IMG/VR virus record: IMGVR_UViG_3300023235_000012
Location: 32,001-96,000 of that record
DNA from: a virus
Length of the DNA: 64,000 nucleotides
Direction: 5' to 3' (one strand)
This document shows positions 19,171-46,315 of the stretch, in pieces (position 1 is the stretch's first letter; every line of letters starts with the position of its first letter). A program made the translations under genes and the position numbers. The notes beneath the pieces are model-generated. The model did no database searches. It had not been told where the DNA came from and worked only from the letters and a program-made list of their open reading frames with translations.

Positions 19171-19204
19171 AAATAGAAGTGTCAGTTTCCCGACACTTCT
19201 ATTT
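19171..19204 (-). terminator. probable intrinsic terminator after hsp20
   Basis: AAATAGAAGTGTC-loop-GACACTTCTATTT inverted repeat. Confidence 0.65.
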
Positions 19205-19221
19205 ATCTTTTTTCGAAAAGT

Positions 19222-19638
19222 TTACTTGATTTGTAGGATCTTTGGTTTCTTTTCTTCCGGGATTTTCTTCTCAAGGAAGACAGTCAATAGACCATTTTCA
19301 AGAGAAACACCAGTTACTTCAACTAAAAGATCAAGTTTGAATTCGCGGTCGAAATCACGAGTGGCGATACCGAAATATACAAAATTAGTGGGATCATTTA
19401 CTTCTTCTTTGTGACCTTTAATTGTAAGCTTCCCTGGTTGTGCAGTCACCGTCAATTCATCTTTGGAAAATCCTGCCACTGCTAGAGTGATTTCAAAATT
19501 TTCATCGTTAAGCTTTGCGATATTATACGGTGGATAACTGTTTACTCTCGCGGAAGCTGCGCGATCCCAAAGATCGTCAAAGCCTACTGTCATGCGATTT
19601 AGTCCGGGAAGAAGTGATGATAATTGTCTGTTTGTCAT
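19222..19638 (-). CDS. small heat-shock protein Hsp20 (IbpA-like)
   Basis: YPPYNI, LAVAGF, GIATRDF.REF, L.NGLL, PEEKKP..L.I; SD AGGAGG before ATG 19638. Confidence 0.92.
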   Translation of the reverse strand: MTNRQLSSLLPGLNRMTVGFDDLWDRAASARVNSYPPYNIAKLNDENFEITLAVAGFSKDELTVTAQPGKLTIKGHKEEVNDPTNFVYFGIATRDFDREFKLDLLVEVTGVSLENGLLTVFLEKKIPEEKKPKILQIK

Positions 19639-19719
19639 AATTGACCTCCTAAGTTTAGCAAGGTAATGTTTTGGTCCTCGACATAGAGCGACCGGTAAAT
19701 GAACCCTTTTGGCGTTCAC
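19639..19719 (-). promoter_or_regulatory. ROSE-like RNA thermometer 5' UTR
   Basis: Three hairpins; the last pairs CUUGCU (bulged G) with the AGGAG SD. Confidence 0.65.
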
Positions 19720-19765
19720 TATTACATATAGTAATTCGAAAGGGTTTTGTCAAGGTTTTTTTGAA

Positions 19766-19795
19766 AAAATAGAGGGGAAATTTCCCCTCTATTTT
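19766..19795. terminator. palindromic, probably bidirectional terminator
   Basis: AAAATAGAGGGGAAATTTCCCCTCTATTTT perfect palindrome. Confidence 0.75.
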
Positions 19796-19803
19796 CGATT
19801 ATT

Positions 19804-20205
19804 TTAGTAATTTACCTGGTTATAATCCCCCAGGTAATGTGTTTCCCGATTGGGGATCAATTCTCCCCTCTTTTCGGCCATATGACTCACTTGAATCTTA
19901 CGATCCCGTTCGCGGCGAGCCTTTCGGGTTCGTCCCCTCTTAAGGGCTGAAAGATGATGGATTGTATCATGATCCAGTTCTTGCTCTTCTTCGCGTAGCA
20001 TCTTCTGTTGCCGTCGTCGGGCAGCAGCCGTTGCTTTTCTCGTCTTCTCACCTTTTCCAATAAACGCTTCTTTAGAGCGGATATCAGTAATCCAACGTTC
20101 TTGAACTAAGAGTCGTCGGAGACGAGAAAGGCCCTTATCTACTTCGTTGTTAAAGACTTTTACGGTGGTGGAAAAATCGCCCATTCCCTTGTGCTTGTTG
20201 CCCAT
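19804..20205 (-). CDS. rpsU: ribosomal protein bS21-like with C-terminal extension
   Basis: VKV.NN.VDKGL.RL.R...E....DIR.KE.F....EK.RK..AAARRR; about 60 extra residues. Confidence 0.7.
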   Translation of the reverse strand: MGNKHKGMGDFSTTVKVFNNEVDKGLSRLRRLLVQERWITDIRSKEAFIGKGEKTRKATAAARRRQQKMLREEEQELDHDTIHHLSALKRGRTRKARRERDRKIQVSHMAEKRGELIPNRETHYLGDYNQVNY

Positions 20206-20211
20206 TTTGAA

Positions 20212-20703
20212 TTATTCTCCCTTGGCAATGGTGGCACTCAACGCTCGACCTTCGAACGTCTTATTTTTAATATAACGTAAACCATCAATCATATCAATAA
20301 GTTTCTTGAATGTTTCTTCTCCTTGTGGTTTGTTTGCCAATTCTCTTCCACGAAAGCGCATTGTGATCTTAACTTGGTTTCCTTTTTTTAGAAATTCAGA
20401 AATACGCTTAGCTTTGATTTGAAGATCATGTTTGTCGGTTACTGGCCTGAGTCTGATTTCTTTGGTTTCAATCCGAGATTCCGCTTGTTTCTTCTTGCTC
20501 TCTTTCTCTTTTTTCTGAAGTTCGTATTTGTATTTTCCAATATCAGCTAATCTACAGACTGGTGGATCTGCTTTTTCTGTGATTAAAATTAAATCCAATC
20601 CTTCTCTAGCTGCTAAATTTTTAGCTTCGTTGATTGAAAGAATTCCATGATTACTTATTCGTACTTTTTCGAATCTGATTTGATCATTTATTATTATCTG
20701 CAA
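20212..20703 (-). CDS. infC: translation initiation factor IF-3
   Basis: INDQIR, GLDLI, PPVCRL.D.GKYKYE, KEIRLRP...HD, K.TMRFRGRE; TTG start. Confidence 0.95.
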   Translation of the reverse strand: MQIIINDQIRFEKVRISNHGILSINEAKNLAAREGLDLILITEKADPPVCRLADIGKYKYELQKKEKESKKKQAESRIETKEIRLRPVTDKHDLQIKAKRISEFLKKGNQVKITMRFRGRELANKPQGEETFKKLIDMIDGLRYIKNKTFEGRALSATIAKGE

Positions 20704-30699: not shown

Positions 30700-31269
30700 T
30701 CAATAGACTTCTTTGACTTCGTCACAGCATTTCAATTTCTTTGCTTGTTTAGCTGACAACCAGACATCGTGTGCAGGTAACAGATACTCTCTGATTTTCT
30801 TTTCTGTCATCCCATCGATGCATTTCATATAATGCTTTAAGATACGCTCACTTGTCAGTTCAAAACCTTTCTGTGAAGCGTAAAGGTCATGTTCTTTCCC
30901 ACTGCTTCCAGCAGAATATTGATGAGACAAAATACTGGTATTCGGCGTTAGGATCCGATGTCCTTTCTCACCAGCGATGAATGCAATAAAACCACAGCTA
31001 GCAATTTGACCTATAGCGACTGTTCGGATGGGGATTGCGCTTCCTTTCATTGTGTCTACCAATGCAAAGCAAGTCGATACCAATCCACCTGGAGAACAAA
31101 TCACTAAAGTTAGAAATTCTTTACGATCTGTTTTTCGAAGATTTTCAGTTATGATCCATCTGATTGCTTTCTCACAAGATTGATAATTGAAATTATCCAT
31201 AAAAAGATAATATCCATTATCTCGAATTGGATCGAAATCAGTCTCAGTTGATGGATTATTGCTGGTCAT
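30700..31269 (-). CDS. clpP: ClpP-family protease
   Basis: CSPGG, G..ASCG (catalytic Ser), SHQ (His), D.WLSA; SD AAGGAG before ATG 31269. Confidence 0.85.
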   Translation of the reverse strand: MTSNNPSTETDFDPIRDNGYYLFMDNFNYQSCEKAIRWIITENLRKTDRKEFLTLVICSPGGLVSTCFALVDTMKGSAIPIRTVAIGQIASCGFIAFIAGEKGHRILTPNTSILSHQYSAGSSGKEHDLYASQKGFELTSERILKHYMKCIDGMTEKKIREYLLPAHDVWLSAKQAKKLKCCDEVKEVY

Positions 31270-31286
31270 TTTTTCTCCTTTGGACT

Positions 31287-31541
31287 TTACTTGATTCTTT
31301 GATTGTCTATTAGGTTTGGGAGTTCCATCCAATGTGTTGGATTTCTGAGTAATCGTCCTCCGACCCATTTGTTTATTCTTCTATTATATGATCCTAACCC
31401 AATCCAAGCAACGTGTTTTTCTGATCTGTCAGAACTCATCCATGTTATAGGATTAAAAATTGATTTTTCTTGAATTGAAAGCACAATGACTTTTCTATTA
31501 GAATTAGGTATTTCTGATATTGGATATAGATCATTAAACAT
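31287..31541 (-). CDS. hypothetical protein (DUF551-like PTHWM..P tail)
   Basis: PISE.P...NPTHWMELP. Confidence 0.55.
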   Translation of the reverse strand: MFNDLYPISEIPNSNRKVIVLSIQEKSIFNPITWMSSDRSEKHVAWIGLGSYNRRINKWVGGRLLRNPTHWMELPNLIDNQRIK

Positions 31542-31568: not shown

Positions 31569-33044
31569 CTAAGCATGAAGCCTCCAATCAGCAATCTTAT
31601 AAACCGTGTGTTTTTGGATTTTTTCACGATAATATTTACAGCGTTCATTCTTGTGCCTGTTCGAGTATTTGGTTGATGAGCAGATATCAAACACCTGAAC
31701 GTCTTCCTTATCAGATCCTTTTCTAAGTCCACGACCAAGAGACTGTATCACTCTCGTGAAGGCTCGTCCCGATTCAATCATCACTAAATTATGAATCCGC
31801 TGAATATCAATGCCTGTAGAGGCAACACCATATGTAGCAACAGTGACAGTATGATTTCCGGCCTGTACTTCAGCATATCGATCTTGACGATCTTTACTTT
31901 TCATTGCACCTCGGACGAACTCTGCGTCTAATCCTAGCGCTTTAAGTTCTTCGGTTAGCGCTTTTCCGGGATCAACCCTATCGATGAGTATCAAGGTGTT
32001 TCCGGTTGTTTCTGTTATCTCTTTCGTGAATTTTGCTATGTAGCTTATTCTCTCTTCATCTTTGAGGATAGCGTCTAGCTCTGCATGATAATCGATGAAC
32101 TCTCTCTTGTCTACCAGCTGCATGATGGTGATTTCAGAATCAGCTAAGAATCCTTTGTCTTGTAGTTCTTTGGTTTCCACTTGCAAGACACAGGGACCGA
32201 TAGCCAATTCCAGCTGGATAGCTTCAATCTTTTCCTTAGGGATCGTGCCAGTTAGCCCCCAACGAATAGGAATATTTTTGAATTGATTGGTGAACAGATC
32301 CTTCAACACTGCTCCTGACATGGTGTGCGCTTCGTCGGAAATGATCGCCTGCTGACCCTCTAGGACTTCTTCTATTTCTTTCGGTGTTAGCTGATCCATT
32401 CCTCTTGGTTTCTTATAGAAAGCATTGATGGATTGCCATGTACAGATGGTAGCTTGCTTGTTCAACTCTTTCGTCTTCCCATAGAACAGCCCAGTTTCGA
32501 TGCCCATATCCGTGAAAACCTTTGCAGTCTGAGTGACGAGGTCAGTTCGAGGTACCACAATTAGCATTCTACCGTAGTTCTTGACCTTTTTTGCTAACGC
32601 GGCGGCGATTGCTGTATTATGGTGAATTATGCCGGAACTGTCCACATATAGATGAGGAGAAGGCAATGAAACATCAAAGTATTTTTGATTGGGCAATGTC
32701 TCAATTTTTCTAACCTTCTTAAAACCTCGAACGGTGTCGATTTTCTGACCACTGCACAAATCTCTAGCATTTATCTCTTTTCTATTTGAAAACAAAATAT
32801 GACCAGACGAACATTCAATGTTTGAATTATCTTCAAAAAATATCTTAATTCCATCTGTGGATTTCATAATTAGATGCAATATCGGCTCATATGACTCAAT
32901 TGATCTAATATATATTCCACTTGATTTGATATCTTTTTCAATGTTTTCTTGAAATTTAGATTTAGAAAATTCTTCATAATACGAAAATAAATCCCCAATC
33001 TTAAGAGTGCAGCTTTTCAAAAATTTCTCCTTCAATATTTCCAT
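31569..33044 (-). CDS. split-intein C-fragment (143 aa) fused to UvsW-like SF2 helicase C-part
   Basis: CSSGH (block B), YFDVS, IIHHN/T; then DEAH, GLTGT, STGID, QSLGRGLR; own SD AGGAG. Confidence 0.9.
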   Translation of the reverse strand: MEILKEKFLKSCTLKIGDLFSYYEEFSKSKFQENIEKDIKSSGIYIRSIESYEPILHLIMKSTDGIKIFFEDNSNIECSSGHILFSNRKEINARDLCSGQKIDTVRGFKKVRKIETLPNQKYFDVSLPSPHLYVDSSGIIHHNTAIAAALAKKVKNYGRMLIVVPRTDLVTQTAKVFTDMGIETGLFYGKTKELNKQATICTWQSINAFYKKPRGMDQLTPKEIEEVLEGQQAIISDEAHTMSGAVLKDLFTNQFKNIPIRWGLTGTIPKEKIEAIQLELAIGPCVLQVETKELQDKGFLADSEITIMQLVDKREFIDYHAELDAILKDEERISYIAKFTKEITETTGNTLILIDRVDPGKALTEELKALGLDAEFVRGAMKSKDRQDRYAEVQAGNHTVTVATYGVASTGIDIQRIHNLVMIESGRAFTRVIQSLGRGLRKGSDKEDVQVFDICSSTKYSNRHKNERCKYYREKIQKHTVYKIADWRLHA

Positions 33045-33150
33045 TACTTTCTCCTGAACCGGTTATTCCTTCTATTTTATTCATAAGAAACTTACCAAAT
33101 TCAGTATTTTCATCAATTAATATGTCGATATTAGTATTGTATCCTAGACA
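32616..33150 (-). mobile_element. naturally split mini-intein with atypical (N-proximal) split site
   Basis: GAGK/CLGYNT...stop (49 aa) and M...HHN/TAIAA (143 aa) in different frames; no homing endonuclease. Confidence 0.85.
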
Positions 33151-33594
33151 TTTCCCTGCTCCGGTAGCTGCTTCGACTATTGCGTGTTGATTTTCAAGAA
33201 GAGCGTTGACTATTCTTACTTGATGTTCTTCCAAGACGACAGCTTCACCTTCGAGCCGGTGACCCTCGGGCCAATTGACGTCGTTCAAATAATTTTCATC
33301 GATTGGTTTGAAGCCTACTTCGAACTCAGCACGATGATCTTCGATTTCGATGTTATAGAGTCGCTCCTCAATGATTGGAAGGACGCGGTCAAGAAGATTG
33401 ATAAATGTTTCACCGTTTACCGCATTGAAAAAAGCTTTACGTCCATCCCATCTTCCCATCTTCACTGCATAGGTATGGCGGGCTTTGGGATCGTAAAACT
33501 TTAGAGCAGCTGAACAAAGACGCCGTGTTTCAGCGTCTAATCCTTTGAATGTAGCGTTTACTTCGTCTTTTAAAATTAACGTGCAGCTGCGCAT
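33001..33594 (-). CDS. UvsW-like helicase N-part fused to split-intein N-fragment
   Basis: GRWDG, Q motif, Walker A ATGAGK followed by CL. Confidence 0.9.
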   Translation of the reverse strand: MRSCTLILKDEVNATFKGLDAETRRLCSAALKFYDPKARHTYAVKMGRWDGRKAFFNAVNGETFINLLDRVLPIIEERLYNIEIEDHRAEFEVGFKPIDENYLNDVNWPEGHRLEGEAVVLEEHQVRIVNALLENQHAIVEAATGAGKCLGYNTNIDILIDENTEFGKFLMNKIEGITGSGESNGNIEGEIFEKLHS

Positions 33595-33664: not shown

Positions 33665-33694
33665 GATACCGTCTTCCGTTCTGGAAGACGGTAT
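33665..33694 (-). terminator. intrinsic terminator
   Basis: ATACCGTCTTCC-loop-GGAAGACGGTAT followed by a T tract on the minus strand. Confidence 0.75.
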
Positions 33695-33819
33695 GAAGAT
33701 TTAAAAGTTACCAGCTAAACGTTGCTACGGCCCAGACTGCAAAGATAATACCGAGGAAGAACCAATGCACCATCCCATAATCTTTTCGTTTCATCATCTT
33801 CTTTCCTTTCTATTAAAAT

Positions 33820-34905
33820 TCAAATACGCTTCAGCAGTGTATTTCTTGCTAAGTATTGCCAGTCATCTGGTTTCATCCGCATGAGATCGGCAAGATTGAG
33901 CACCGTGCGTAGAGTGATGCCATTCTTCAATTTACCAATGTTCTTTCGGATGAAATCGACGATCTCTTCGCGCTCTTCAGTTTTGAGATCATATTCGTCC
34001 AACATCCCCGACCCCAACGCCACACTCTTCACTCGCAGGAAACGATCCCGCGGTGTGTCAATGGTCAGGTCCAACGAAAGGACTCGATCAAACAGTGCCT
34101 GCACGTGCGCCTTGATTTTTTCGGATCTCGTCGTCTCTGGCTTAAGGTTTGTGATAAAGATCACCGAGCCCTTGAATTCGAAATGATTGGGGATGCCTTC
34201 AGCAGCAAGCAATCTACTATCAGAATTATAGCTGAGATATCGTCGTTTGCCAGTATCCAAGGCTGCTTTCAGCATATTCAGTGCATCACCGTCGAAGAAG
34301 ACACTGTCACAATCATCAAAAACCAAGATCTGGTCTGCGTTGCTGAATGCATAAAGCTTTATGAAAAGCATAATAGGAGTAATCGTACCCTTGACGATGT
34401 CAAACGTCGGCTTCTTATCGGCCATATAATTCATCACGTTGAGCTCTGTCAGGCACTTTTCAACTCCAAAGCTCTTACCTACGCCAGGAGCGCCCGAAAC
34501 GACCAAACCTCGAATGTGACCCCGACCAACGCCAAACGTCAATTCGTCAAGAACGCTAAATCGTTCATTAATCCGTTCGATGGCGTTCTTTTCTGTCTCA
34601 CCGTCGACATCGCCTTCCAATGTTACCTTGGTCCAATCAATTGCGCTGGTCTTAACACCTTCGGGAACTTCGAACACTGGAGCAGAAACTTCGATCTTTG
34701 AATCGACCTTTTCGTAATCATCCTCCGATGAGATCAGCACCCGAGCATTACTATTCGGATGTCCAAAAACTTCACCGTTGACTGTCACCTTCAGGATCGG
34801 CTTCCCTTTGTAGAAACCTTTTTTCGCAGGTTCAATCATCTCAGCAATCGTACCAGAAACATCGGTCTTCCGATATGTTCCTTTTTTAATCCGTATCTTC
34901 TGCAC
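33820..34905 (-). CDS. P-loop AAA-type ATPase
   Basis: GAPGVGKS, LVFDDCD, IFITN. Confidence 0.85.
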   Translation of the reverse strand: MQKIRIKKGTYRKTDVSGTIAEMIEPAKKGFYKGKPILKVTVNGEVFGHPNSNARVLISSEDDYEKVDSKIEVSAPVFEVPEGVKTSAIDWTKVTLEGDVDGETEKNAIERINERFSVLDELTFGVGRGHIRGLVVSGAPGVGKSFGVEKCLTELNVMNYMADKKPTFDIVKGTITPIMLFIKLYAFSNADQILVFDDCDSVFFDGDALNMLKAALDTGKRRYLSYNSDSRLLAAEGIPNHFEFKGSVIFITNLKPETTRSEKIKAHVQALFDRVLSLDLTIDTPRDRFLRVKSVALGSGMLDEYDLKTEEREEIVDFIRKNIGKLKNGITLRTVLNLADLMRMKPDDWQYLARNTLLKRI

Positions 34906-34991
34906 TTGCTTCTCCTTCTTCCTTAGTGTCTTTATAGTATAAACTTAAAAAAGATTTTGTCAAGTGTTTTCTTGGATTATTTTCGAAGAGT

Positions 34992-35020
34992 CGAAGGGTG
35001 ATCTTTTCGACCACCCTTCG
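34992..35020 (-). terminator. probable terminator after pncA
   Basis: CGAAGGGTG...CACCCTTCG inverted repeat. Confidence 0.6.
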
Positions 35021-35025
35021 TTAGA

Positions 35026-35601
35026 TTAGCCTAGAACTACCCTCTTATTCACCCATTCTTCAGAATAGACTTGCTCAATCTGCCGCTCTATTCCTTTGGT
35101 AAGGTCCTTCTTGACCTTCACTCGAAAGCCATTCTTCACAAGACCGTCGACCGCCCATTTCACACAAAAATCAGCCGCAAAACCTACAACCTCAAAGTCA
35201 AACAGTTCGTCTCGCTTGAGATGAGCGAAGAAAAACTCTCTCGAGCATTTGTGGCCTTCTGCGTCGGTGATGGTCACCTTCTCTTCTTGCCACATGTCAA
35301 AGACGCCTTTCTCCAGTTTATAGACCAAAGGCTCGATGTCAGTTGTGACGGCTAGTTCCCATCCCTCTGTTCCTTTAACACAATGAGGAGGAAAAATTTT
35401 ACCCTCTTCTGATTCTGCGTAAACCTCAGGAACATGAGTGTCGAAGGAATAAAGAACCAGGTGGGTGTCTTCCTTCGTAAGGCTCTTGAGGTAATCATTG
35501 ATCGGTTTGATCAATGGTTCAGCTCCAGGAACCGGTAGATTTGCGCCTTCTTTGATGAAATCTACCTGTGCGTCGACTACGATTACAACTTTCTTATTCA
35601 T
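35026..35601 (-). CDS. pncA: nicotinamidase
   Basis: VVDAQVDF...G.LPV, D.H, FPPHC..GT.G, KG, G.A.DFCV. Confidence 0.9.
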   Translation of the reverse strand: MNKKVVIVVDAQVDFIKEGANLPVPGAEPLIKPINDYLKSLTKEDTHLVLYSFDTHVPEVYAESEEGKIFPPHCVKGTEGWELAVTTDIEPLVYKLEKGVFDMWQEEKVTITDAEGHKCSREFFFAHLKRDELFDFEVVGFAADFCVKWAVDGLVKNGFRVKVKKDLTKGIERQIEQVYSEEWVNKRVVLG

Positions 35602-35665
35602 CTTACTCTCCTAATATTATAGATGAACTTTTCAAGTGACCAAAATGATCCTTAATTCGATCCTC

Positions 35666-35881
35666 TTATTGAGTGACCTTAATTTCTAACGACTTGGTTT
35701 TGAACATGAAATCCAGAATCGCTTTGACCGCAGCGCATTCTCGAGCGTTAAAGTTTTCTTGATCGATGATAACATTATTAGCATTAATTTCTCGCAAGAA
35801 CGACTGTAGTTCTTCGGTGAAAGCCCAGAGATCTATTTTATGCTCGGGCATCATCGTTTTTGCTTCACTAGCGTTTAACAT
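35666..35881 (-). CDS. hypothetical protein
   Basis: SD AGGAG; lies between NMNAT and pncA. Confidence 0.6.
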   Translation of the reverse strand: MLNASEAKTMMPEHKIDLWAFTEELQSFLREINANNVIIDQENFNARECAAVKAILDFMFKTKSLEIKVTQ

Positions 35882-35983
35882 TGCAACTCTCCTATGAGTT
35901 TGACGTCTTTTGGTTTATCCCAGGGCAACGTGGCATTCCCTTATTGTCCTTGTAGTTTAACACTTTTTTGATGAATTGTCAAG

Positions 35984-36580
35984 TCATTTTATTCTATAAA
36001 TTTCTGGGAATTTATCAAGCACCAGCTGATGATTAACCCGCGGGACCCATTCTTTCCAATCTGGTTGACCGAGTTCAAGAAAGGTTCTAAGATCTGTCGC
36101 AGGAGGAACATTGTTATGATCACGATTGATAATATGACATTCCCTTTTTTGATCTTTGATTTTGAATCTATTCTTCCATTGTTCTTGAATCATAAACGTA
36201 TTCCACTGGATTGGTGTTCCTTCCAAGAAAAATCGATCTGTATACCATCGAGAATCAGCTACACTTCCAGTAAAATAATCGGTTGGATCAGGAAGACCAA
36301 TCTTATAGATCTTTTCCAAGACATAATCAATCCAATCGTTATTGTCGTCTTGAGTGTCTAGATCAGCTAGTTGAATAATCTTCAGACGATCTCCAAAAAC
36401 ATTTTGAACCATCATTTTTCGATCTTCGAATGAATAAGGATTCCACTTATTATTGACATTGGTTGAACCAATCCCCAAGATCACCGTCTCACATGACTCG
36501 ATCATTTGATTGATGGTCTGTGTATGTCCTTTATGCAGCGGTTGGATTCGCATGCAGGCAAGTGCTGTCCTTCTAGTCAT
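35984..36580 (-). CDS. NadM-type NMN/NaMN adenylyltransferase
   Basis: R.QPLHKGH, GIGS, NPYSFE.R..M, ATDLR; SD AGGAGG before ATG 36580. Confidence 0.85.
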   Translation of the reverse strand: MTRRTALACMRIQPLHKGHTQTINQMIESCETVILGIGSTNVNNKWNPYSFEDRKMMVQNVFGDRLKIIQLADLDTQDDNNDWIDYVLEKIYKIGLPDPTDYFTGSVADSRWYTDRFFLEGTPIQWNTFMIQEQWKNRFKIKDQKRECHIINRDHNNVPPATDLRTFLELGQPDWKEWVPRVNHQLVLDKFPEIYRIK

Positions 36581-36581
36581 A

Positions 36582-37052
36582 TTAAATCCTCCTACGCTTT
36601 TTCTCTTCAAGAAACGACAAGGCATCTTTGACGATTTCGGTATGATTGAACGCCAACTTGATCTCTTCATTCACCACTGGATCAGTTGACACCCATGCAA
36701 TTGATGAAAGATCGTCACCAGCCCGGACTGATGGTGGATTAACCAGTATGACCAGATAGCAAACATTGACAACATGACAGCGAGGATCAATAATTGGATC
36801 GCTGTAAACTGCGAATAGATTCAATTTTGACAATGGGACTTCCAAGCCGGTCTCTTCTTTGATCTCCCTGATCATAGCTTGTTCTACCTGTTCACCTTCA
36901 TCAACGAAGCCTCCAGGAAGGCAAGAATAACCAGGGAAGGCGTCTGTCTTAGAAGTTCGACGACCAGTCAAAACCGTAGTTCGTCCATTAGAAGGACAAA
37001 TGATAACGGCGGTTGCAGTGACTGCTGGTCTTGGATATTCGTAGCTTATCAT
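36582..37052 (-). CDS. Nudix hydrolase (ADP-ribose pyrophosphatase-like)
   Basis: Intact Nudix box GGFVDEGEQVEQAMIREIKEETGL; DPR, AGDD, LAFNH. Confidence 0.9.
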   Translation of the reverse strand: MISYEYPRPAVTATAVIICPSNGRTTVLTGRRTSKTDAFPGYSCLPGGFVDEGEQVEQAMIREIKEETGLEVPLSKLNLFAVYSDPIIDPRCHVVNVCYLVILVNPPSVRAGDDLSSIAWVSTDPVVNEEIKLAFNHTEIVKDALSFLEEKKRRRI

Positions 37053-38353
37053 ACCCTTGTCTCCATTTCAGTTTTTCCATCATTGCCGAAAATCTTCAAG
37101 TATTTTGCAATTTCAGATTGGATACCTGTAGCCTTTTTCGGGTTGTTGCTCAGCTTAACTGCTGGTTTTCCATCTGCTTCGAGTACCTTGCACACCAGAC
37201 TGAAAGAACGAAAACGATCTTCTCCTGATGGATCACAGTTGATGAAATCGTTAGTTAAAGCTGTTCCCCATCCGAACGGTGTGATCATCTGCCCTTCGAA
37301 TTGTGTCTGAAGGTTGACAATATTTTCGTAATCCAAACCGTCCGAGAAAATACAAGCCTTCTCACGTGGATCAACATCATGATCACGCAACCAATAGAAG
37401 AACATATTAGCTTCAACTTCTGGGCTTCCAGAGTCCTGTCTGATTCCTCTCCAGTTGGTGGCGATCTCTTCCGCAAGGTTCCGAGGCATCCCTTTAAAGA
37501 ACTGCGTAGATCCATAGGTATCAGGTAGAACGATCCGAAGACCTTTACCAAACAATGTTCCCCATTCACGAACGATATCATACTGTGCTTTGGGTTTCAG
37601 TTCATCCGGATATAGTGCAGTCACCACCATTGGAAGCTCATGAGCGTTCGTACCAATTGGAACCTTATCCTGATTAAAAGCCAACCAAGTATTGCTAGTT
37701 CCGACGAACTGATCGCCCAGTACATCACTGGCCATCTCAATGGCGAATTTCTGCCAGAGGAAGCTGTGACGACGACGCTGTCCAAAATCCGTGATCTTCG
37801 CGTTTGGTGCGTTTTCTTTGATGAATTTCAGTTTGTTGTACAGCTTGCTGGTCGCGTTCGCGTAGAGGACCTTTCGATCCATCGATGTCATCTTCCGCAA
37901 TTTCTTCCGGTAATAAAGCTCCGACACGATCGCCAGGGCAATGGTTTCCCAAAAAGTTACCTGCTCCCAAGGTCCTTCGAACGTTAGGCTCAGTTCAGGG
38001 CCTTTCATCTCAAGGTGGTAATCAGGCAGACGAACAGTGGAAAGGAACTCGATGTATTCTTCGTCGAACATATTTTCACCGTAGACGTCCATTCCACGAA
38101 GGTAATAAAGGTCGGTTCTTCGAAAGCCCAAGGTGCGAACATGATCGAGCTGCTCTCGGAGCTCCTGTTCGTCAATCATAAATCCTAGTGGAACGTTTTG
38201 ATCACGGTTGATCAATCTAAACTTGACATTGACACCCCGATGTTTTTTGAAAATGTAATAACCCATCGTAAGTTTATAAAAATCGACGTCCATCAGAGAT
38301 CTAATGATGAAATCGGTTTCTTGCAAAGAACTTCGTTCTGCAAAATCAGTCAT
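37049..38353 (-). CDS. pncB: nicotinate phosphoribosyltransferase
   Basis: D.DFYKLTM, DFGQRRRHS, GTSN, GTNAHE, DTYG, RQDSG, FSDGL, FGWGT, KLSNNP.KA. Confidence 0.93.
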   Translation of the reverse strand: MTDFAERSSLQETDFIIRSLMDVDFYKLTMGYYIFKKHRGVNVKFRLINRDQNVPLGFMIDEQELREQLDHVRTLGFRRTDLYYLRGMDVYGENMFDEEYIEFLSTVRLPDYHLEMKGPELSLTFEGPWEQVTFWETIALAIVSELYYRKKLRKMTSMDRKVLYANATSKLYNKLKFIKENAPNAKITDFGQRRRHSFLWQKFAIEMASDVLGDQFVGTSNTWLAFNQDKVPIGTNAHELPMVVTALYPDELKPKAQYDIVREWGTLFGKGLRIVLPDTYGSTQFFKGMPRNLAEEIATNWRGIRQDSGSPEVEANMFFYWLRDHDVDPREKACIFSDGLDYENIVNLQTQFEGQMITPFGWGTALTNDFINCDPSGEDRFRSFSLVCKVLEADGKPAVKLSNNPKKATGIQSEIAKYLKIFGNDGKTEMETRV

Positions 38354-39287
38354 TGTTCTGTCCTTTCAAAACGCTTGGGGTCCAGATCGAATCAAGTTTT
38401 GCCAGGCTTTCAAATCGCCCAGGGACTGCTTCGAGATAGGCTGGATTGTATCGCTTAAAGGCTGTTCGAGACATCCTTTTTTCAACCTTATCATAAACAT
38501 CAGCTGATCTTCGATCACTTATCGCCGTATCTTTGTTCATGAACGACATCAACATGATATCCCATTCGAGATATGAACAGCCGAACTGTGCTTCGTCACC
38601 GTCATTAATCCCAAGACCGTCGGTTGGTTTAGCCGTATAAACTGACTCTGGAACACCCATCATCTTTGCGATGACTGGCACTTCCCATGACTTCCAAAGA
38701 GATTGGATTGGACTGAGATCACCAACGTCTCCGTGTAGAGTCCAGAAACCTGCAGCCAATTCACTAAAATTATCAGTTGATGCAACCAGGCCCCGTTCAG
38801 CATGTGCTACATTATATAGTGTGATCATTCGAAGTCGAGCTCTAATATTCCCGGTACGAATTTTTTCGTCGTCAGTCATTGGATTAATGTGCACCAATCG
38901 ATCAGACAAAAGCTGCGCTTCACTGGTCAAATCAATCGTTTCGAATGGAATCTCAAGAGCATCACAAACTTCAACACCACGTTCGGTTTCGACCGGATCT
39001 TGATTGATTGGAAGCAATAAACCCTTGACTTTCCATCCTGCTTCTTTAAACAGCGCGGCTACCAGAGCCGAATCAACACCACCAGAAACGCCAAGAACTG
39101 CAACGTCGATACCTGATTGTTTTCGATAATCAACCAGATCCTCGATCAATTTGATCGAGGTCAGTCTTAATTCTGTTTCTTGAATGAATCCACCACTTGC
39201 GATTAGCTTTTTCAATTGGCTATCGAACCACGGTGAAAGTTCTGCGATGGTATCTTGACGAGATACCTTAAGGATTGTATTTTTCAT
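38346..39287 (-). CDS. nadE: NH3-dependent NAD+ synthetase
   Basis: GVSGGVDS, NIRARLRM..LY, TDN.SE...GF.T..GD, PTDGL...DE. Confidence 0.92.
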   Translation of the reverse strand: MKNTILKVSRQDTIAELSPWFDSQLKKLIASGGFIQETELRLTSIKLIEDLVDYRKQSGIDVAVLGVSGGVDSALVAALFKEAGWKVKGLLLPINQDPVETERGVEVCDALEIPFETIDLTSEAQLLSDRLVHINPMTDDEKIRTGNIRARLRMITLYNVAHAERGLVASTDNFSELAAGFWTLHGDVGDLSPIQSLWKSWEVPVIAKMMGVPESVYTAKPTDGLGINDGDEAQFGCSYLEWDIMLMSFMNKDTAISDRRSADVYDKVEKRMSRTAFKRYNPAYLEAVPGRFESLAKLDSIWTPSVLKGQNND

Positions 39288-39386
39288 TGTATCACCTCAC
39301 TTTCATGGGTTTAAATACATTTGCTGTGACCAATCGATCCAACTTAAAGCAAAATGACTTTATGTCTATCTTGCCTTTTATTTATA

Positions 39387-39572
39387 CTAAATCTTCTCTT
39401 GATTGTCAATATTTTTCTTTGCATCTTCGTTGAGAAGCTTAGCAACCCGTTCTGCAGCTGGAATGTTGTATTCTGCGACCGCAGATACCACGCGCCCCAC
39501 GAAACCATTTGCGATTTCGAATTCGATCTTTTCATTTTCTTCGCCGTAAACTATCAACTTATCCATTTTCAT
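39387..39572 (-). CDS. hypothetical protein leading the NAD cluster
   Basis: ORF after promoter TTGACT-N16-TATAAT (about 39599-39626). Confidence 0.55.
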   Translation of the reverse strand: MKMDKLIVYGEENEKIEFEIANGFVGRVVSAVAEYNIPAAERVAKLLNEDAKKNIDNQEKI

Positions 39573-39629
39573 ACCTTCTTATTTCTTTATCATAATTAAT
39601 TATAACACGGTGCAAGAAAAAGTCAAGCA

Positions 39630-41177
39630 TTAAAAAGGAATGTCGTTAAATTCCCAGATATTTTCATCGTCACTGGAAAGGATGCTTTCGAATATATCCC
39701 GGACGTCTCCTACCTCATCGATGCTTTCAAGCATTATATCAAAGCCCCAGAGTCTACGTAGATGACGGATGGTTTCCTGAGCACTATCATTGTCTAATGG
39801 TATCTTGTCAATCATAGTATGTTCCAGAAATAGAGTCCTATCACCATCAATGGCGAAATCAGTAATCTGAATATCCGGGATGGAACGATTGATTTCATAT
39901 TGTTGAGAAAGATTCTTACGGATTTTAATGTAGCCGTCTTGATCTTGGATATTGGTTACCAGATAATTTTCATCTTCTTCATCTTTTAAGACGAAAAGTT
40001 TCAAATCTCTGATGACTTTGGGACTTAGATATTGTAGGACGAAGCTAGAATCTTTGAAGTTTTCCATTGCGTATTTTATTTCTGTAAGCCAATCTCCACC
40101 GGTGATATCAGGGAACCATTTTTTATCTTCGTCTGTTGGGTTATCACACATCCTCTTGATGTCCATAAAGATCGAAAATCCCAGGTAATATGGATTTAAT
40201 CCAGAATAACGTTGATCATCAAAATCTGGCTGGAATAGAACCGACGTATGACTATGCATAAATTCAAGCATATGTCCATCATCAAGAAAACCTTGTTCCC
40301 ATAATTCATTCATCAAAGTATAATGCCAGAAACTCGCCCATCCTTCGTTCATCACTTTTGTCTGCATTTGAGGATAAAAATATTGACTTGTCTTGCGGAC
40401 TATTCGGATAATTTCTCGCTGCCAATTCTTCAAAAGAGGAGCATTCTTTTCTAGAAAATAGAGGATATTTTCTTGTTTCTCTTCGAGGAAGGGTTTATAA
40501 ACCTTTCCGTTTGGGTCTTTGTTCTTCGATTGCGGCAATGTCTTCCAAAGATCATCAACTGATCGTTGTCTGTACTCTTCTCTTTCGTGAAGACGTTCGA
40601 GCTCTTTCTCTTTGGATTGTCTTTTTGGCTTATGATAGCGATCTACTCCAAAGAATTGCAAAGCATGGCAAGAATCAAGAACCTTTTCTACTGCTTCTAA
40701 ACCATACTTCTCTTCGCATTTTGTGATATATTTTTTAGCAAAAATCAGGTAGTCGATAATGGCCTCTGCGTCTGTCCACTCTTTGAATAGATAATTTCCC
40801 TTGAAGAAGCTATTGTGTCCGAAAGCTGCATGGGCAATAACCAAAGTCTGCATCACCATCGTATTCTCTTCCATCAGATAACTGATGCACGGGCTTGAGT
40901 TAATCACTATCTCATAGGCGAGGCCCATCCTACCACGACGGTAATTATTTTCTGTCTGGGTGAAATTTTTACCAAAAGACCAATGGAAATAGAACACTGG
41001 CATTCCATGACTAGTATAAGCATCCATCATCTGTTCAGAGGAAATAACCTCCAACTGATTTGGATAGCAGTCAAGTCCAAATTTTTCGACTGCTATTTTT
41101 TCGATGATGGTCGTCACTTCATTTAGCCGATCAAAATTCCAATCATTATCGTCCCAAAGTTTTTTGCTCTGTTTCAT
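39630..41177 (-). CDS. ycgB: SpoVR/YcgB family protein
   Basis: HWSFGK, GLAYEIVINS.PC, AHA.FGHNSFFK, YFYPQ.QTKVMNEGWA. Confidence 0.95.
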   Translation of the reverse strand: MKQSKKLWDDNDWNFDRLNEVTTIIEKIAVEKFGLDCYPNQLEVISSEQMMDAYTSHGMPVFYFHWSFGKNFTQTENNYRRGRMGLAYEIVINSSPCISYLMEENTMVMQTLVIAHAAFGHNSFFKGNYLFKEWTDAEAIIDYLIFAKKYITKCEEKYGLEAVEKVLDSCHALQFFGVDRYHKPKRQSKEKELERLHEREEYRQRSVDDLWKTLPQSKNKDPNGKVYKPFLEEKQENILYFLEKNAPLLKNWQREIIRIVRKTSQYFYPQMQTKVMNEGWASFWHYTLMNELWEQGFLDDGHMLEFMHSHTSVLFQPDFDDQRYSGLNPYYLGFSIFMDIKRMCDNPTDEDKKWFPDITGGDWLTEIKYAMENFKDSSFVLQYLSPKVIRDLKLFVLKDEEDENYLVTNIQDQDGYIKIRKNLSQQYEINRSIPDIQITDFAIDGDRTLFLEHTMIDKIPLDNDSAQETIRHLRRLWGFDIMLESIDEVGDVRDIFESILSSDDENIWEFNDIPF

Positions 41178-41211
41178 TTTTTACCTTTTGTGACTGCATA
41201 AGAAATTAAGT

Positions 41212-42465
41212 TCAAGAAAATAGTTCTCTGAAAACCGGATAGATTTCATTCGGTCCGTTAATTTTTTTCATCTTGAAATTTTTAAATCTTCCCATCATCT
41301 TTTCAAAGCTTTGCCAGAGCTCTTTTTCTCCAAAGGTACCAAACATAAATGAGTCATCATCTTGTTCTAATTGGATATAAGCATAATATTGGACAAGAGG
41401 CATAATAGTTTCAGATAGTAACTCTTCACATTGAGCCGAATCGTTTATCCAGTTATCTCCATCCGATGCTTGAGCAAAATACAAATTCCAATCTGATGAC
41501 GGGTAACGTTTTTGAATAATTTCATGAGCTAATTTCAATGCTGTACTGGCGACGGTACCGCCTGATTCTTTCGAATGGAAAAACTCCTGTTCATCTACTT
41601 CTTTAGCACTATGAGTGTGGCGAATGAAGACAATTTCGATCTTTTCGTATTTTCGCTGTAAGAAAAGGTATAGAAGAATAAAGAATCTCTTGGCGAGATC
41701 TTTTTCATATTCTCCCATTGAGGCACTGACGTCCATGATACAAAACATCGCAGCTTTTGTAGTTGGATCTGGTTTATTTTCAAAAGAATTGAAACGTAAA
41801 TCAACATCATCTATGAACGGTACCTTTTCTCTTAGATCTTTGAGTTCTTCTAATTTCTTTTTAAGTTCTTTAGAAGAAGGATCTTTTTTAATCAACAACT
41901 CGATTTTTTCAATTTCATCATCGAACGCTGCTTGTAAAGCGATCTTGCGAGCTAGCGCTTGCTTCATTGATCTCAAAACATTCAGATTAGATGGATTTCC
42001 TACTGGAGTAAAACCTGATCTCTTTAGTTTCTGGACTTCAATGTCTTTAAGTTGAGTTTTTATTAGATCGGGTAACTCAAGATCTTCGAAGAAGAATTCT
42101 AAGAATTCTTCTCTACTGATGTTGAAGACAAAATCATCTTCACCTTCTCCATCGGATGATCCTTCTCTTCCACCTGCACCACCACATGGTGGACGTTGGA
42201 TTTCATCTCCGACAATGTGTTTTTTGTTTCCGGGGAGGACGTGATCTTTCTTTCCTCCCTTACCGTTTTGGAAGCTAGGCTCTTTAATTCCTTTAGAAGG
42301 GATCTTGATTTTATCACCCGAACCGATATCTTTGATGCTTCGTTCAGAAACGATCTGATCGACTCTTTCTTTGATTACAGCTTTGGAACGTTTGATAAAG
42401 CGTTGTCGGTTGGAAGAACTTTTGTTCTTGCCGTTTTTACGTCGATCGATTATAATTGATGACAC
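41212..42465 (-). CDS. yeaH: YeaH/YhbH (UPF0229, vWA) protein
   Basis: IIDRR.N.KNKS..NRQRF, MDVSASM, ESGGT, QASDGDNW. Confidence 0.95.
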   Translation of the reverse strand: MSSIIIDRRKNGKNKSSSNRQRFIKRSKAVIKERVDQIVSERSIKDIGSGDKIKIPSKGIKEPSFQNGKGGKKDHVLPGNKKHIVGDEIQRPPCGGAGGREGSSDGEGEDDFVFNISREEFLEFFFEDLELPDLIKTQLKDIEVQKLKRSGFTPVGNPSNLNVLRSMKQALARKIALQAAFDDEIEKIELLIKKDPSSKELKKKLEELKDLREKVPFIDDVDLRFNSFENKPDPTTKAAMFCIMDVSASMGEYEKDLAKRFFILLYLFLQRKYEKIEIVFIRHTHSAKEVDEQEFFHSKESGGTVASTALKLAHEIIQKRYPSSDWNLYFAQASDGDNWINDSAQCEELLSETIMPLVQYYAYIQLEQDDDSFMFGTFGEKELWQSFEKMMGRFKNFKMKKINGPNEIYPVFRELFS

Positions 42466-42474
42466 GTTAGCTCC

Positions 42475-44415
42475 TTATGTCGATTTTTTCACGCGCATAT
42501 ACCATTCGACTAAGAGACGAGTCTGTCTCTCTGTATAACCCTTTTCCTTCATTCGTTCAACAAAATCTTTGTGCTTCTTTTCATCGTCTTCGCTTGACTT
42601 CGAACCAAAGCTAATCACTGGAAGAATGTTTTCAGTTGAACTAAACATCTTCTTCTCAATTACTTCGCGAAGCTTTTCATATGACGTCCATTTTGGATTC
42701 TTGCCTTTGTTTTTGGCGCGGAACCGTAGAGCGAAATTAACCACTTCGCCACGAAAGTCTTTTGGATTAGCGATTCCAGCAGATTTTTCAATTTTCTCTA
42801 GTTCGTCATTTAATGCAGAACGTTCAAACATTTCACCGGTATCATGATCCTTATAATCTTTATCATCAATCCAGTGATCAGCATAATCAATGTAACGATC
42901 AAACAAATTCTGTCCGTATTCTGAATAGCTTTCGAGATAAGCAATTTGAATTTCTTTACCGATATATTCTGCATATTTGTCTTTGAGATATTCGTTAAGG
43001 AAGCCGATGTATTGTTCTTCGGTTTCCGTCGAGAATTGTTCCTTGATTATACTTTCTTCTAAAACTCGCAAAAGATGTACTGGATTAGCACCAATCTCTT
43101 CTGGATCATAATTGAACACCTTTGACAAAATTTTGAACGCAAAGCGAGTTGACAATCCTGACATACCTTCATCAACACCACCTACGTCTCGGTATTCTGA
43201 GATTGACTTAGCTCGAGGATCAACGTCTTTCAAATTTTCACCATCATAAATTCTCATCTTCGAAAATAAACTGCTATTTTCTGGAATCTTGAGGCGGGAT
43301 AAAATGGCCATCTGTGCCATCATCTCTAATGTCTTTGGCGTGCAGGGAGCGTTCGCCAGAGAAGAGCTTGCCAACAGCTTTTCGTAGATCTCCTGCTCTT
43401 CAGTTGTCCGCAAGCAATAGGGAACCTTGACGATGTAAATACGGTCGAGAAAGGCTTCATTGTTTTTGTTGTTTCTAAACGTCGTCCATTCTGATTCATT
43501 CGAGTGGGCCAGGATCACACCATGAAAAGGAATAGCACCAATGTTTTCAGTTCCGATATAATTCCCTTCTTGTGTCGCCGTGAGTAACGGATGCAATACC
43601 TTGATCGGGGCTTTGAACATTTCCACGAATTCCAATACCCCTTGGTTTGCCCGGCATAGCCCACCATCATAAGAATAGCAATCCGGGTCATTCTGTGCGA
43701 ATTTGTTCAATTTTCTGATATCAACCTTACCAACCAAGGCACTGATATCCTGGTTATTCTCATCACCTGGTTCAGTCTTTGAGATTGCAATCTGATTAAG
43801 CTTAGATGGATTCAAACGAACCACCTTGAACTTGCTGATATCACCATCAAAATCTTCACGAAGCCTCTTGTTCGCCCATGGACTCATTAGTCCATTTAGG
43901 TATCGACTTGGAATATTATATTCTTTCTCGAGTCGATCGGTCCATTGTTCAGGATCGAATAGCCCTAGCGGACTTTCGAAAATGGGACTAGTGGAGTCGT
44001 CTGTCGCCAGAGCATAAATTGGAAAACTTTCAGCCAAAGATTTGATTCTTTCTGCGAGGCTTGATTTTCCTCCACCGACTGGCCCTAGGAGATAGAGGAT
44101 CTGCTTCTTTTCTTCGAGTCCTTGTGCTGCGTGCTTGAAATAACCGACGATCTGTTCAACAGTGTCTTCCATCCCGTAGAAATCTTTGAAGGAAGGATAA
44201 ACCTTAATGGTCCGATTATTAAAGACGCGACTAAATCGAGCGTCGTCGCTGGTGTCTACCATTTCTGGTTCACCAATAGCTTTCAACATTCTTTCTGCTG
44301 CTGTTGCGTAGGTTGATGGGTCTTCTTTGCACAGCTTTAAATATTCCTGTATTGTAAGTTCTTCTTGCTTCTTAGTATCATAGTGACTCTTGAAATCTTG
44401 AAAGATATTGGTCAT
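42475..44415 (-). CDS. yeaG: PrkA/YeaG AAA+ ATPase (annotated Ser kinase)
   Basis: LLGPVGGGKSS, EPGDENNQDIS.LVG, EFVEMFKAPIK.LHPLL, EAFLDRI. Confidence 0.96.
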   Translation of the reverse strand: MTNIFQDFKSHYDTKKQEELTIQEYLKLCKEDPSTYATAAERMLKAIGEPEMVDTSDDARFSRVFNNRTIKVYPSFKDFYGMEDTVEQIVGYFKHAAQGLEEKKQILYLLGPVGGGKSSLAERIKSLAESFPIYALATDDSTSPIFESPLGLFDPEQWTDRLEKEYNIPSRYLNGLMSPWANKRLREDFDGDISKFKVVRLNPSKLNQIAISKTEPGDENNQDISALVGKVDIRKLNKFAQNDPDCYSYDGGLCRANQGVLEFVEMFKAPIKVLHPLLTATQEGNYIGTENIGAIPFHGVILAHSNESEWTTFRNNKNNEAFLDRIYIVKVPYCLRTTEEQEIYEKLLASSSLANAPCTPKTLEMMAQMAILSRLKIPENSSLFSKMRIYDGENLKDVDPRAKSISEYRDVGGVDEGMSGLSTRFAFKILSKVFNYDPEEIGANPVHLLRVLEESIIKEQFSTETEEQYIGFLNEYLKDKYAEYIGKEIQIAYLESYSEYGQNLFDRYIDYADHWIDDKDYKDHDTGEMFERSALNDELEKIEKSAGIANPKDFRGEVVNFALRFRAKNKGKNPKWTSYEKLREVIEKKMFSSTENILPVISFGSKSSEDDEKKHKDFVERMKEKGYTERQTRLLVEWYMRVKKST

Positions 44416-45619: not shown

Positions 45620-46013
45620 TATTCAACACTCCTTTAATTATTTCTCTTGCTTGTTTTGGTTTGATAAGCTGACCATAAAGAGGAGCTGAAAGCTTCTTCG
45701 AAACAATCTTCAAGGCAGATTTTCGTTCGTGCCTGTTTCCATTTTCCATAAGCCATTTATATTCCGCTTGATGAGCTGGAATTTCTTCCTGGATTCTGAA
45801 GACCGGATCTTCGATGTATCGTGCCCACCAACCTTCTACGTCGGGTTTTTGTCGGGCACCATGAATTTCTTCATGGGAGATGAGCTCGGCGGGAATATGA
45901 ATCCTATTCGGATTATAAATTTTGTCTCCCCATGCGAAGATAACAGTTTTAGTAATCGGAAAAACCTTTATCAATTCATCAAAATTTGGAGGATAGTCTT
46001 CAATTATTTTCAT
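45612..46013 (-). CDS. zincin-like HExxH protein
   Basis: HEEIH..Q ... E..A. Confidence 0.65.
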   Translation of the reverse strand: MKIIEDYPPNFDELIKVFPITKTVIFAWGDKIYNPNRIHIPAELISHEEIHGARQKPDVEGWWARYIEDPVFRIQEEIPAHQAEYKWLMENGNRHERKSALKIVSKKLSAPLYGQLIKPKQAREIIKGVLNND

Positions 46014-46315
46014 TCTTCTACAACTTGTGCCGTCAAAGGAAATTCACTTTGCCGAGCTAACATGATCGTTTCTGCTGCTTTTGTTTCGGCAATTTCCAGT
46101 GAAAAAGTTCCGGCAATGCCTTTACCTTTCTCGTGAATTTCTCGTGTGATGTTGAACGCCTCTGAATCGGTTTTATGGAAAACAAATGATAACAGACCAA
46201 TCACAAATGCCATAGTGGTATAGTCATCATTTAAAAGAATAACATGATAATTCTTTGGTTTTTGAACCTTCGATTTTGTTTTAGTCTTCTTATCTATTAC
46301 TGTTTCATCAGTCAT
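46010..46315 (-). CDS. clpS: Clp protease adaptor ClpS
   Basis: YHVILLNDDYTTMAFV, IHEKG.GIAG, EIAETK, FPL. Confidence 0.93.
   Translation of the reverse strand: MTDETVIDKKTKTKSKVQKPKNYHVILLNDDYTTMAFVIGLLSFVFHKTDSEAFNITREIHEKGKGIAGTFSLEIAETKAAETIMLARQSEFPLTAQVVEE

Follow-up and report, generated by a model that had tools for sequence, protein, structure and literature searches.

Five clustered genes, nadE, pncB, a Nudix hydrolase gene, nadM, and pncA, in a 64,000-nucleotide stretch of viral DNA (the window; bases 32001-96000 of the 137,267-base IMG/VR virus record IMGVR_UViG_3300023235_000012) are best read, from their sequences, as a phage-encoded unit for re-synthesis of nicotinamide adenine dinucleotide (NAD+) that would keep NAD+ up in the infected cell. 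An earlier reading made from the letters of the window without database searches (the sequence-only reading) had described six open reading frames (ORFs) here, the sixth being a small one between nadM and pncA, in an overlapping or abutting layout, and had named the enzymes. The coordinates, family matches, and PDB matches bear out the layout and the gene identities, and all six ORFs lie on the minus strand where that reading had placed them. The five enzyme genes are as follows, with protein lengths in amino acids (aa).

38346..39287, minus strand: nadE, 313 aa, single-domain (ammonia-type) NAD+ synthetase
37049..38353, minus strand: pncB, 434 aa, nicotinate phosphoribosyltransferase
36582..37052, minus strand: Nudix hydrolase gene, 156 aa, ADP-ribose pyrophosphatase type
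35984..36580, minus strand: nadM, 198 aa, NadM-type nicotinamide/nicotinate mononucleotide adenylyltransferase (NMNAT)
35026..35601, minus strand: pncA, 191 aa, nicotinamidase with the isochorismatase fold

The nadE and pncB genes overlap by 8 nucleotides (nt), pncB and the Nudix gene overlap by 4 nt (ATGA), and the Nudix gene and nadM are spaced by 1 nt. The last value depends on the start of nadM; its longest ORF starts at 36670, but the likelier start is the ATG at 36580 behind GGAGGA, directly past the Nudix stop.

NadE matches PF02540 (E 4.7e-46) and scores 156.6 bits with TIGR00552, the cut-off of which is 63.65. All 19 of its PDB matches are named NAD+ synthetase, the top three being 3p52, 2e18, and then 3fiu (E 2.9e-20). 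The PP-loop motif SGGVDS is present, and a CN_hydrolase (glutaminase) domain is absent, unlike in the 606-aa form encoded at a related locus (L020). PncB matches PF04095 and PF17767 and reaches 384 bits with NF003704 (cut-off 379), while none of the NadV/NAMPT models of NCBIfam matched it. Its six PDB matches are all nicotinate phosphoribosyltransferases, with the closest entry, 1ybe (E 8.4e-111), being presumably an Agrobacterium protein. The motif GTNAHELPM is invariant in 30 of 30 aligned homologues.

The Nudix protein matches PF00293 (E 4.7e-20); in NCBIfam, the bifunctional NadM/Nudix model NF003791 matches it best, through the Nudix half (E 1.5e-14). The PDB matches include 2qjo (NadM-Nudix) and chains 2yyh and 2fml, and among them are Nudix domains that we take to be NrtR-like. 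The Nudix box is perfect (G48-x5-E54-x7-R62-E63-I64-x-E66-E67-x-G69-L70). Judged by sequence likeness, the Nudix domains nearest to the protein are the ADP-ribose-type ones found in NadM-Nudix and NrtR proteins, in agreement with the type proposed by the sequence-only reading. It was also considered as an NrtR-type repressor. This candidate was rejected, because the protein is short (156 aa), has an intact box, and matches only the Nudix part of the repressor-type model (positions 16-161 of 245), features which point to an enzyme.

The single-sequence matches of NadM are modest: PF01467 gives 27.2 bits against a cut-off of 21, PDB entry 2qjt gives E 1.8e-9, NF002243 of NCBIfam gives E 2.1e-11, and TIGR00125 is above its cut-off. 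A profile of 11 phage NadM orthologues gives a clearer assignment, with all 11 PDB matches (E up to 0.001) being NadM-type NMNATs. His16, Gly18, His19, and Arg165 are invariant in the 11 orthologues, and the motifs HKGH and ATDLR are present. This protein is the only PF01467 protein in the 137-kilobase (kb) record. Here and below, statements on what the record holds or lacks refer to Pfam scans of 74 and 107 ORFs, corresponding to about 37% of the genome.

PncA matches PF00857 (36.6 bits, cut-off 27), phrog_19305 (E 1.9e-31), and NF008623 (E 1.6e-11, under its cut-off). Among its six best PDB matches, five are chains named nicotinamidase/pyrazinamidase and the other is 3r2j ("alpha/beta-hydrolase-like protein"); the E value is 1e-14 with both 3pl1 and 1ilw. 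Asp10, Lys98, and Cys146, and Asp54, His56, and His73, align to the catalytic and the metal residues of chain 3pl1, respectively, where we take the Asp/Lys/Cys set to be catalytic and the Asp/His/His set to bind the metal. The motifs of NadE, PncB, Nudix, and NadM were likewise read with definitions that we take to be the accepted ones. With this proviso, reading of the sequences and the alignments agree with the earlier statement that the catalytic motifs are intact in all five enzymes.

Proposed route and the order of its last steps

In the route that we propose, PncA would convert nicotinamide to nicotinate and ammonia, and PncB would combine nicotinate with 5-phosphoribosyl 1-pyrophosphate (PRPP) to give nicotinate mononucleotide (NaMN). 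The NadM-type enzyme would adenylate NaMN to nicotinate adenine dinucleotide (NaAD), and the single-domain NadE would convert NaAD to NAD+, for which it could reuse the ammonia freed by PncA. The Nudix enzyme would split ADP-ribose into AMP and ribose-5-phosphate. The first four genes are translationally coupled, and the host RNA polymerase probably transcribes them from sigma-70-like promoters. The chemistry from nicotinamide through nicotinate, NaMN, and NaAD to NAD+ fits the family assignments of the five enzymes; the substrates, the order of the steps, and the timing of expression are what we infer. The sequence-only reading had given the same route, but the order of the NadM and NadE steps is not fixed by the families.

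The order of these two steps should be noted, since NadE could instead act as a synthetase of nicotinamide mononucleotide (NMN), converting NaMN to NMN, after which NadM would turn NMN into NAD+ and NaAD would never be made. Such an NMN-synthetase route is, we assume, that of Francisella. The entry 3fiu is among the three best PDB matches of NadE, and 2qjt is the best single-sequence match of NadM; both are presumably Francisella proteins. However, 3fiu ranks third for NadE, after 3p52 and 2e18. Furthermore, at sister loci where PncB, Nudix, NadM, and PncA are all orthologous, the same slot is occupied by a two-domain, glutamine-type NadE (CN_hydrolase and NAD_synthase), and all members of this type act on NaAD to our knowledge. 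This replacement favors NaAD as the intermediate. The NadM family is compatible with either order, since NadM-type enzymes use NMN well and can pair with NAD synthetase or NMN synthetase (PMC3376133; this and most other papers are cited here for the accessible part of their text). The best matches of the NadM profile are, however, archaeal NMNATs, described in the same source as bifunctional for NMN and NaMN, which also favors the NaAD route. From these comparisons, the NaAD route is the probable one for the last two biosynthetic steps, and the order through NMN is rather unlikely.

The role of the Nudix enzyme might also differ from ADP-ribose recycling. It might trim NAD+, NADH, or NaAD as a regulator of the pool, or destroy immune signals derived from ADP-ribose. 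The families closest to the window Nudix are ADP-ribose-type Nudix domains, and Pro86, located 16 residues past the Nudix box, fits what we take to be the signature of ADP-ribose pyrophosphatases. By contrast, according to Iyer et al. (PMC9503650, PMC7824862), phage NadM has a Nudix domain that cleaves NAD+ and controls how much of it is present, and phage enzymes degrading cyclic ADP-ribose signals exist (preprint 10.64898/2026.05.28.727677), though no evidence ties Nudix enzymes to signal cleavage in the window phage. A role of either kind appears improbable, and ADP-ribose hydrolysis is kept as the candidate activity.

Phage origin and conservation of the cluster

The record has a CheckV completeness of 37%, which together with its length implies a full genome of about 370 kb. 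It encodes T4-type core proteins (the Gp23 capsid protein, the Gp20 portal protein, a T4 baseplate protein, and a prohead protease), and its large terminase shares 46-47% identity with the terminases of 121Q/PBECO4-type phages, which have genomes of 350 kb. The record is probably that of a T4-like jumbo phage. PHROG and Pfam scans place phage replication, structural, and lysis genes on either side of the NAD cluster. With the cluster as the megablast query, no match, and thus no close relative, was obtained among 50,697 phage records. The stretch is present in sequencing runs labelled salt lake metagenome, with no RNA run listed among the carriers, and runs X4 and X5 left parts of it uncovered. 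Contigs of run X2, which is not the possible source run of the record, span 33668-35972 and 36516-41437, differ from it in one letter at most, and link pncA to a phage AAA-ATPase gene and nadE to SpoVR/YeaH genes. Misassembly, which the sequence-only reading had named as a ground for refutation, is excluded, because this independent assembly ties the cluster to phage genes at both edges.

Loci related to the cluster were searched for through PncB. A search with the PncB sequence alone gave eight pattern matches, none of which was confirmed, whereas an alignment of 30 PncB homologues used as the query retrieved 53 IMG/VR loci, 16 of them on contigs of at least 200 kb. Activities within 7 kb of pncB were counted by tblastn with the window proteins and one long-form NadE. 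The counts are lower bounds, because many contigs end inside the flank.

Five activities near pncB: 14 of 53 loci, 13 of them in the order NadE-PncB-Nudix-NadM-PncA
Four activities near pncB: 13 of 53 loci
Three activities near pncB: 8 of 53 loci
Two activities near pncB: 12 of 53 loci
One activity near pncB: 6 of 53 loci

The survey of phages thus found all five activities at 14 IMG/VR loci and, in addition, in Sinorhizobium phage Phosso (GenBank, 469 kb), where the gene order is the same and the genes are annotated so. The order nadE-pncB-Nudix-nadM-pncA is kept across a clade of 400-580-kb phages. Since it recurs at 13 IMG/VR loci and in Phosso, the clustering is far beyond chance. Variation is also found. 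In Atu_ph07, Nudix, NadM, and PncA are encoded beside pncB on the other strand, and NadE is encoded elsewhere in the genome. The NadE slot of the module holds either the short form, as in the window, or the 606-aa form composed of CN_hydrolase and NAD_synthase domains. Four loci have a second architecture, in which a fused NadM-Nudix protein (374-417 aa) is followed by PncB, PncA, and the long NadE. An NAD_synthase gene is present in all five complete jumbo-phage genomes tested.

The arrangement was then compared with that at cellular pncB loci. The closest 80 of 461 such loci include one with four of the activities and only one with a NadM match, and not a single locus with all five. NadD and divergent cellular PncA or Nudix proteins would escape detection by the phage queries at E 1e-5; the comparison therefore indicates that the arrangement is phage-specific, not that the pathway is absent from cells. 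The closest cellular PncBs (45-55% identity; L064-L082, L088, L117) come from bins labelled Saccharibacteria, Paceibacteria, and Parcubacteria and are mostly encoded beside a long-form NadE. Either jumbo phages and these small-genome bacteria have a PncB lineage in common, or some contigs are phage DNA that was binned wrongly.

These data also bear on the possibility that the segment is host DNA, joined to the phage by misassembly or captured passively as a host operon in recent time. The GC contents of the two 2-kb bins over the cluster (0.437 and 0.435) are at the high end of the window range (0.351-0.440), and PncB is 45-60% identical to cellular PncBs, both of which speak for it. However, the X2 contigs connect the cluster at either end with phage genes, complete jumbo-phage genomes show the same order, and the arrangement is missing from all of the 80 closest cellular loci. 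We regard a host origin of this kind as having a negligible probability.

A further gene accompanies the module in some relatives. A nucleoside 2-deoxyribosyltransferase-like gene (PF15891) is located 3' of pncA at 8 of 23 related loci compared (for example, L020:11100-11564, L021:12338-12826, and L025:11250-11852), and a link of this gene to pyridine nucleoside or nucleotide metabolism is possible. The PF05014/PF15891 protein of the window (58367-58855), encoded 19 kb off, was considered as the same gene but was left out of the module, because it has no blastp similarity to the gene of the relatives at E 1e-3.

Relation to known NAD+ pathways and possible role

Depletion of NAD+ is among the commonest anti-phage means of bacteria, and three phage pathways that undo it, the NAD+ reconstitution pathways NARP1 to NARP3, have been proven. 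The sequence-only reading had called the present system new, which does not hold. Preiss-Handler clusters of pncB, nadD, and nadE in "NAD-jumbo phages" such as Kuafu_71 were published in 2024 (Microbiome; PMC11662467), and the idea that such genes counter depletion was in print in 2026, when the paper on Xanthomonas phage X1 listed pncB, nadM, nadD, and nadE and suggested that they may counter NAD+ depletion (PMC13384950). The module resembles the clusters of NAD-jumbo phages, which were likewise described from sequence only, in that nicotinate-route genes including pncB and nadE are clustered. It differs from them in having a NadM-type enzyme in place of NadD, and additionally pncA and a separate ADP-ribose-type Nudix gene. 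The five-gene unit is not named in the accessible text of PMC11662467, though its supplementary tables may list similar clusters. In the accessible text of the Atu_ph07 genome paper, pncB is mentioned solely as a PCR marker. A search of the open literature, with subscription journals and supplements outside it, turned up no study in which the nicotinate route of phages had been put to an experimental test. The distinguishing marks of the unit are, by sequence comparison, NadM for NadD, the inclusion of pncA and the separate ADP-ribose-type Nudix gene, and a fixed phage-specific order. As an annotation the present result is well supported, but it belongs to a known theme and does not amount to a discovery.

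The surveys of Iyer et al. cover, in their accessible text, only NadV, NadM, and NadR, and every NadM phage in them has NadV (PMC9503650, PMC7824862). The module departs from this pattern within the 137-kb record, where no Nampt (NadV) homologue is found and PncB is the only PF04095 protein, with no second copy. Phage NadM is usually fused to Nudix (PMC9503650). In NadM-Nudix proteins (PDB entries 2qjt and 2qjo), both halves are homologous to the products of the two window genes, but NadM is N-terminal and Nudix is C-terminal in the fusions, whereas the window has two genes in the reverse order.

Among the proven pathways, NARP2 of phage KVP40 (Nampt/NadV and Nmnat/NatV; preprint 10.1101/2024.02.11.579819) is the one that the module resembles in substance. 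NARP2 forms, and the module would form, NAD+ out of nicotinamide, PRPP, and ATP by means of classical salvage enzymes; both have a NadM-type adenylyltransferase associated with a Nudix domain. In the window, PncA, PncB, and NadE replace NadV, giving four steps instead of two, and the four-step route costs more ATP (PMC9316036). Unlike the two domains of NatV, the Nudix and NadM of the window are encoded by separate genes with Nudix first. NARP1 (Adps and Namat) and NARP3 (PnuC and NadR) are similar to the module as phage pathways restoring NAD+ under attack by NAD+-cleaving enzymes (NADases), but their chemistry is wholly different. Neither a Prs-like Adps nor Namat, PnuC, or NadR was found in the 137-kb record; its sole protein with a phosphoribosyltransferase domain (PRT domain) in the Pfam scans is a 155-aa type-I enzyme, and there is no Prs-family or second nicotinate phosphoribosyltransferase-family protein. 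Cellular pncA-pncB-nadE operons, including those regulated by NrtR, have the enzymes PncA, PncB, and NadE and their chemistry in common with the module, and differ from it in the arrangement and in the near absence of NadM described above (0 and 1 of the 80 closest cellular loci, respectively).

The main selected role of the module would be protection from NAD+-depleting defenses of the Thoeris, SIR2, DSR, and SEFIR types. We incline slightly toward this counter-defense role on the basis of the gene content and the comparisons, and it can coexist with a general supply of NAD+. The record holds several genes of related function. Acb1-like and Apyc1-like genes, noticed already by the sequence-only reading, are confirmed in the window by PF23474 (E 3.8e-32) and PF23023 (105.9 bits, cut-off 50), respectively, and to these a Tad3 homologue in the window and NADAR and Macro proteins elsewhere in the record are added.

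7999-8580, minus strand: Tad3 homologue, 193 aa, PF25185 E 8.1e-40, 135.7 bits; type I Thoeris inhibitor

In type I Thoeris, the protein blocked by Tad3 is ThsB (PMC13728456), and NARP2 (Nampt and Nmnat) abolishes Thoeris and DSR2 defense (preprint 10.1101/2024.02.11.579819). The phage-specific arrangement of the module, as far as sequence comparison can tell, also counts for the counter-defense reading. Outside the window, the same record encodes proteins with NADAR and Macro domains and, in addition, an ADP-ribosyltransferase domain of the ART-PolyVal type (L057:8132-8575, L059:14673-15113, and L058:2038-3786). The phage thus carries writers and erasers of ADP-ribosylation.

The genes might instead serve as a general metabolic booster, supplying NAD+ to a large, slowly replicating phage for redox reactions and its own consumers with no specific link to immunity. 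The accessible text of PMC11662467 reports many NAD+ consumers in jumbo phages, and ART-PolyVal is one in the present record. NARP2 raises NAD+ even without a defense system (preprint 10.1101/2024.02.11.579819). However, the module shares its genome with several counter-defense genes including the Thoeris inhibitor, and its arrangement is phage-specific, not that of a copied host operon. A purely metabolic role is somewhat unlikely in our judgment.

Several points nevertheless weigh against the reading of the module as a counter-defense NAD+ unit. Removal of nicotinamide could relieve the product inhibition of sirtuin-type NADases and so harm the phage. The module is known from sequence alone, and no NAD+-depleting defense is known for the host of this phage. 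NadM, PncA, and Nudix score under the curated cut-offs of NCBIfam, so that their substrate assignments rest on best matches, motifs, and context. No PRPP synthetase was seen in the 137-kb record, and return of the ADP-ribose carbon to NAD+ is without support in the sequence. Of the earlier proposal that both products of NAD+ cleavage are recycled, the nicotinamide route would stand, judging from the genes, but that from ADP-ribose to PRPP does not; conversion of ribose-5-phosphate to PRPP would depend on the host, because no phage synthetase was found in this part of the genome. The companion proposal, that NADases spare the deamidated intermediates, gained no support from the literature or from computation. 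Finally, phages need NAD+ for ordinary metabolism, and the jumbo phage PA5oct, which lacks such genes, raises the expression of the pncA-pncB1-nadE operon of its host in the course of infection (PMC7318152). Together with the phage's own consumer, ART-PolyVal, this behavior means that a general supply role explains the genes equally well.

With these points considered, we tentatively suggest, as a possibility somewhat short of even, that the module constitutes a fourth, phage-specific, NAD+ reconstitution pathway, which would be self-contained in five enzymes, pass the ammonia of PncA to NadE, and have its own ADP-ribose pyrophosphatase. Because the route would start from nicotinamide and PRPP and not from ADP-ribose, it would also work against defenses of the aRES type, which leave ADP-ribose in a modified form and defeat NARP1. 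If the module protects phages, it would add a widespread, jumbo-phage-specific pathway made of ordinary salvage enzymes, explain the gene order fixed in the clade of 400-580-kb phages, and offer a ready cassette to arm laboratory phages against NADase defenses. It is also a natural test of the NaAD and NMN branches for NadM-type enzymes.

Flanking elements and other genes of the record

The elements around the five genes are as follows; the promoter-like sites are putative and orf61 is a predicted gene.

39599..39626, minus strand: sigma-70-like promoter site, TTGACT, 16 nt, TATAAT, with TG extension; 11/12, the best on the strand in 34800-39800
39387..39572, minus strand: orf61, 61-aa orphan ORF between the strong promoter-like site and nadE
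35954..35982, minus strand: internal sigma-70-like promoter site, TTGACA, 17 nt, TAAACT, with TG; 10/12; between nadM and orf71
35666..35881, minus strand: orf71, 71-aa orphan ORF with a GGAGA ribosome-binding-like site, between nadM and pncA
34992..35020, minus strand: RNA hairpin with a 12-bp stem and a 5-nt loop, 6 nt past the pncA stop

The sequence-only reading had placed sigma70-like early promoters upstream of the genes. Sites of this type are indeed present, with 19 in 34800-39800 against 8.7 +/- 2.5 in shuffles. The 11/12 site lies upstream of orf61, which precedes nadE, and immediately 5' of nadE there is just a 9/12 site; the word "early" would follow only from the sites themselves. 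By its position, orf61 is possibly the first gene of the transcription unit. It belongs to no Pfam, NCBIfam, or PHROG family, and tblastn over 55 related loci matched only the copy in the window. No family in these three databases and no usable Atlas match was found for orf71 either; it is absent from the related loci, and among 5.8 billion clustered proteins only orf71 itself was found at near length. The hairpin after pncA has a folding energy of -22.8 kcal/mol (z -5.3), and none of 200 shuffles folds equally well. It may be a terminator or a 3'-end stabilizer without a U tract; the terminator scan did not call it because it has no T run.

Directly upstream of the NAD cluster, a complete trio of PrkA, DUF444 (YeaH), and SpoVR genes is found at 39630-44415 on the minus strand with very strong Pfam matches. 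These are bacterial stress-response genes and a rare sight in a phage. Genes of translation and proteostasis are found at 18900-20703, 30700-31368, and 46010-46315, encoding IF3, a ribosomal protein S21 domain, two ClpS adaptors, a ClpP-like protease, and Hsp20. In relatives, a ribosome recycling factor gene adjoins the NAD module (L021:11835-12338).

A helicase gene at 31569-33594 on the minus strand is spread over two ORFs, 33594-33001 and 33044-31569, which overlap and are read in different frames. The first ORF stops within the Walker A motif at an intein-like piece of about 40 aa that starts with Cys. The second opens with about 143 aa ending in His-Asn, after which the helicase resumes, and the Pfam model Intein_splicing matches its residues 108-143 (E 5.5e-5). 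The pair looks like a natural split gene with an atypical split intein (short N-terminal and long C-terminal parts) or like a frameshifted intein.

A QueE-like radical-SAM protein, GTP cyclohydrolase I, and QueC are encoded at 61948-62913 of the window and at L059:4074-5745 of the same record, suggesting 7-deazaguanine synthesis for DNA modification by the phage. A cyclic-phosphate-processing receiver domain (PF20274) adjoins a calcineurin-like phosphoesterase in the same record (L057:9123-10347), and the record has three RNA ligase genes, in L057 and at 1023-2204 of the window. The PF20274 protein, the phosphoesterase, and the RNA ligases together resemble an RNA-repair set.

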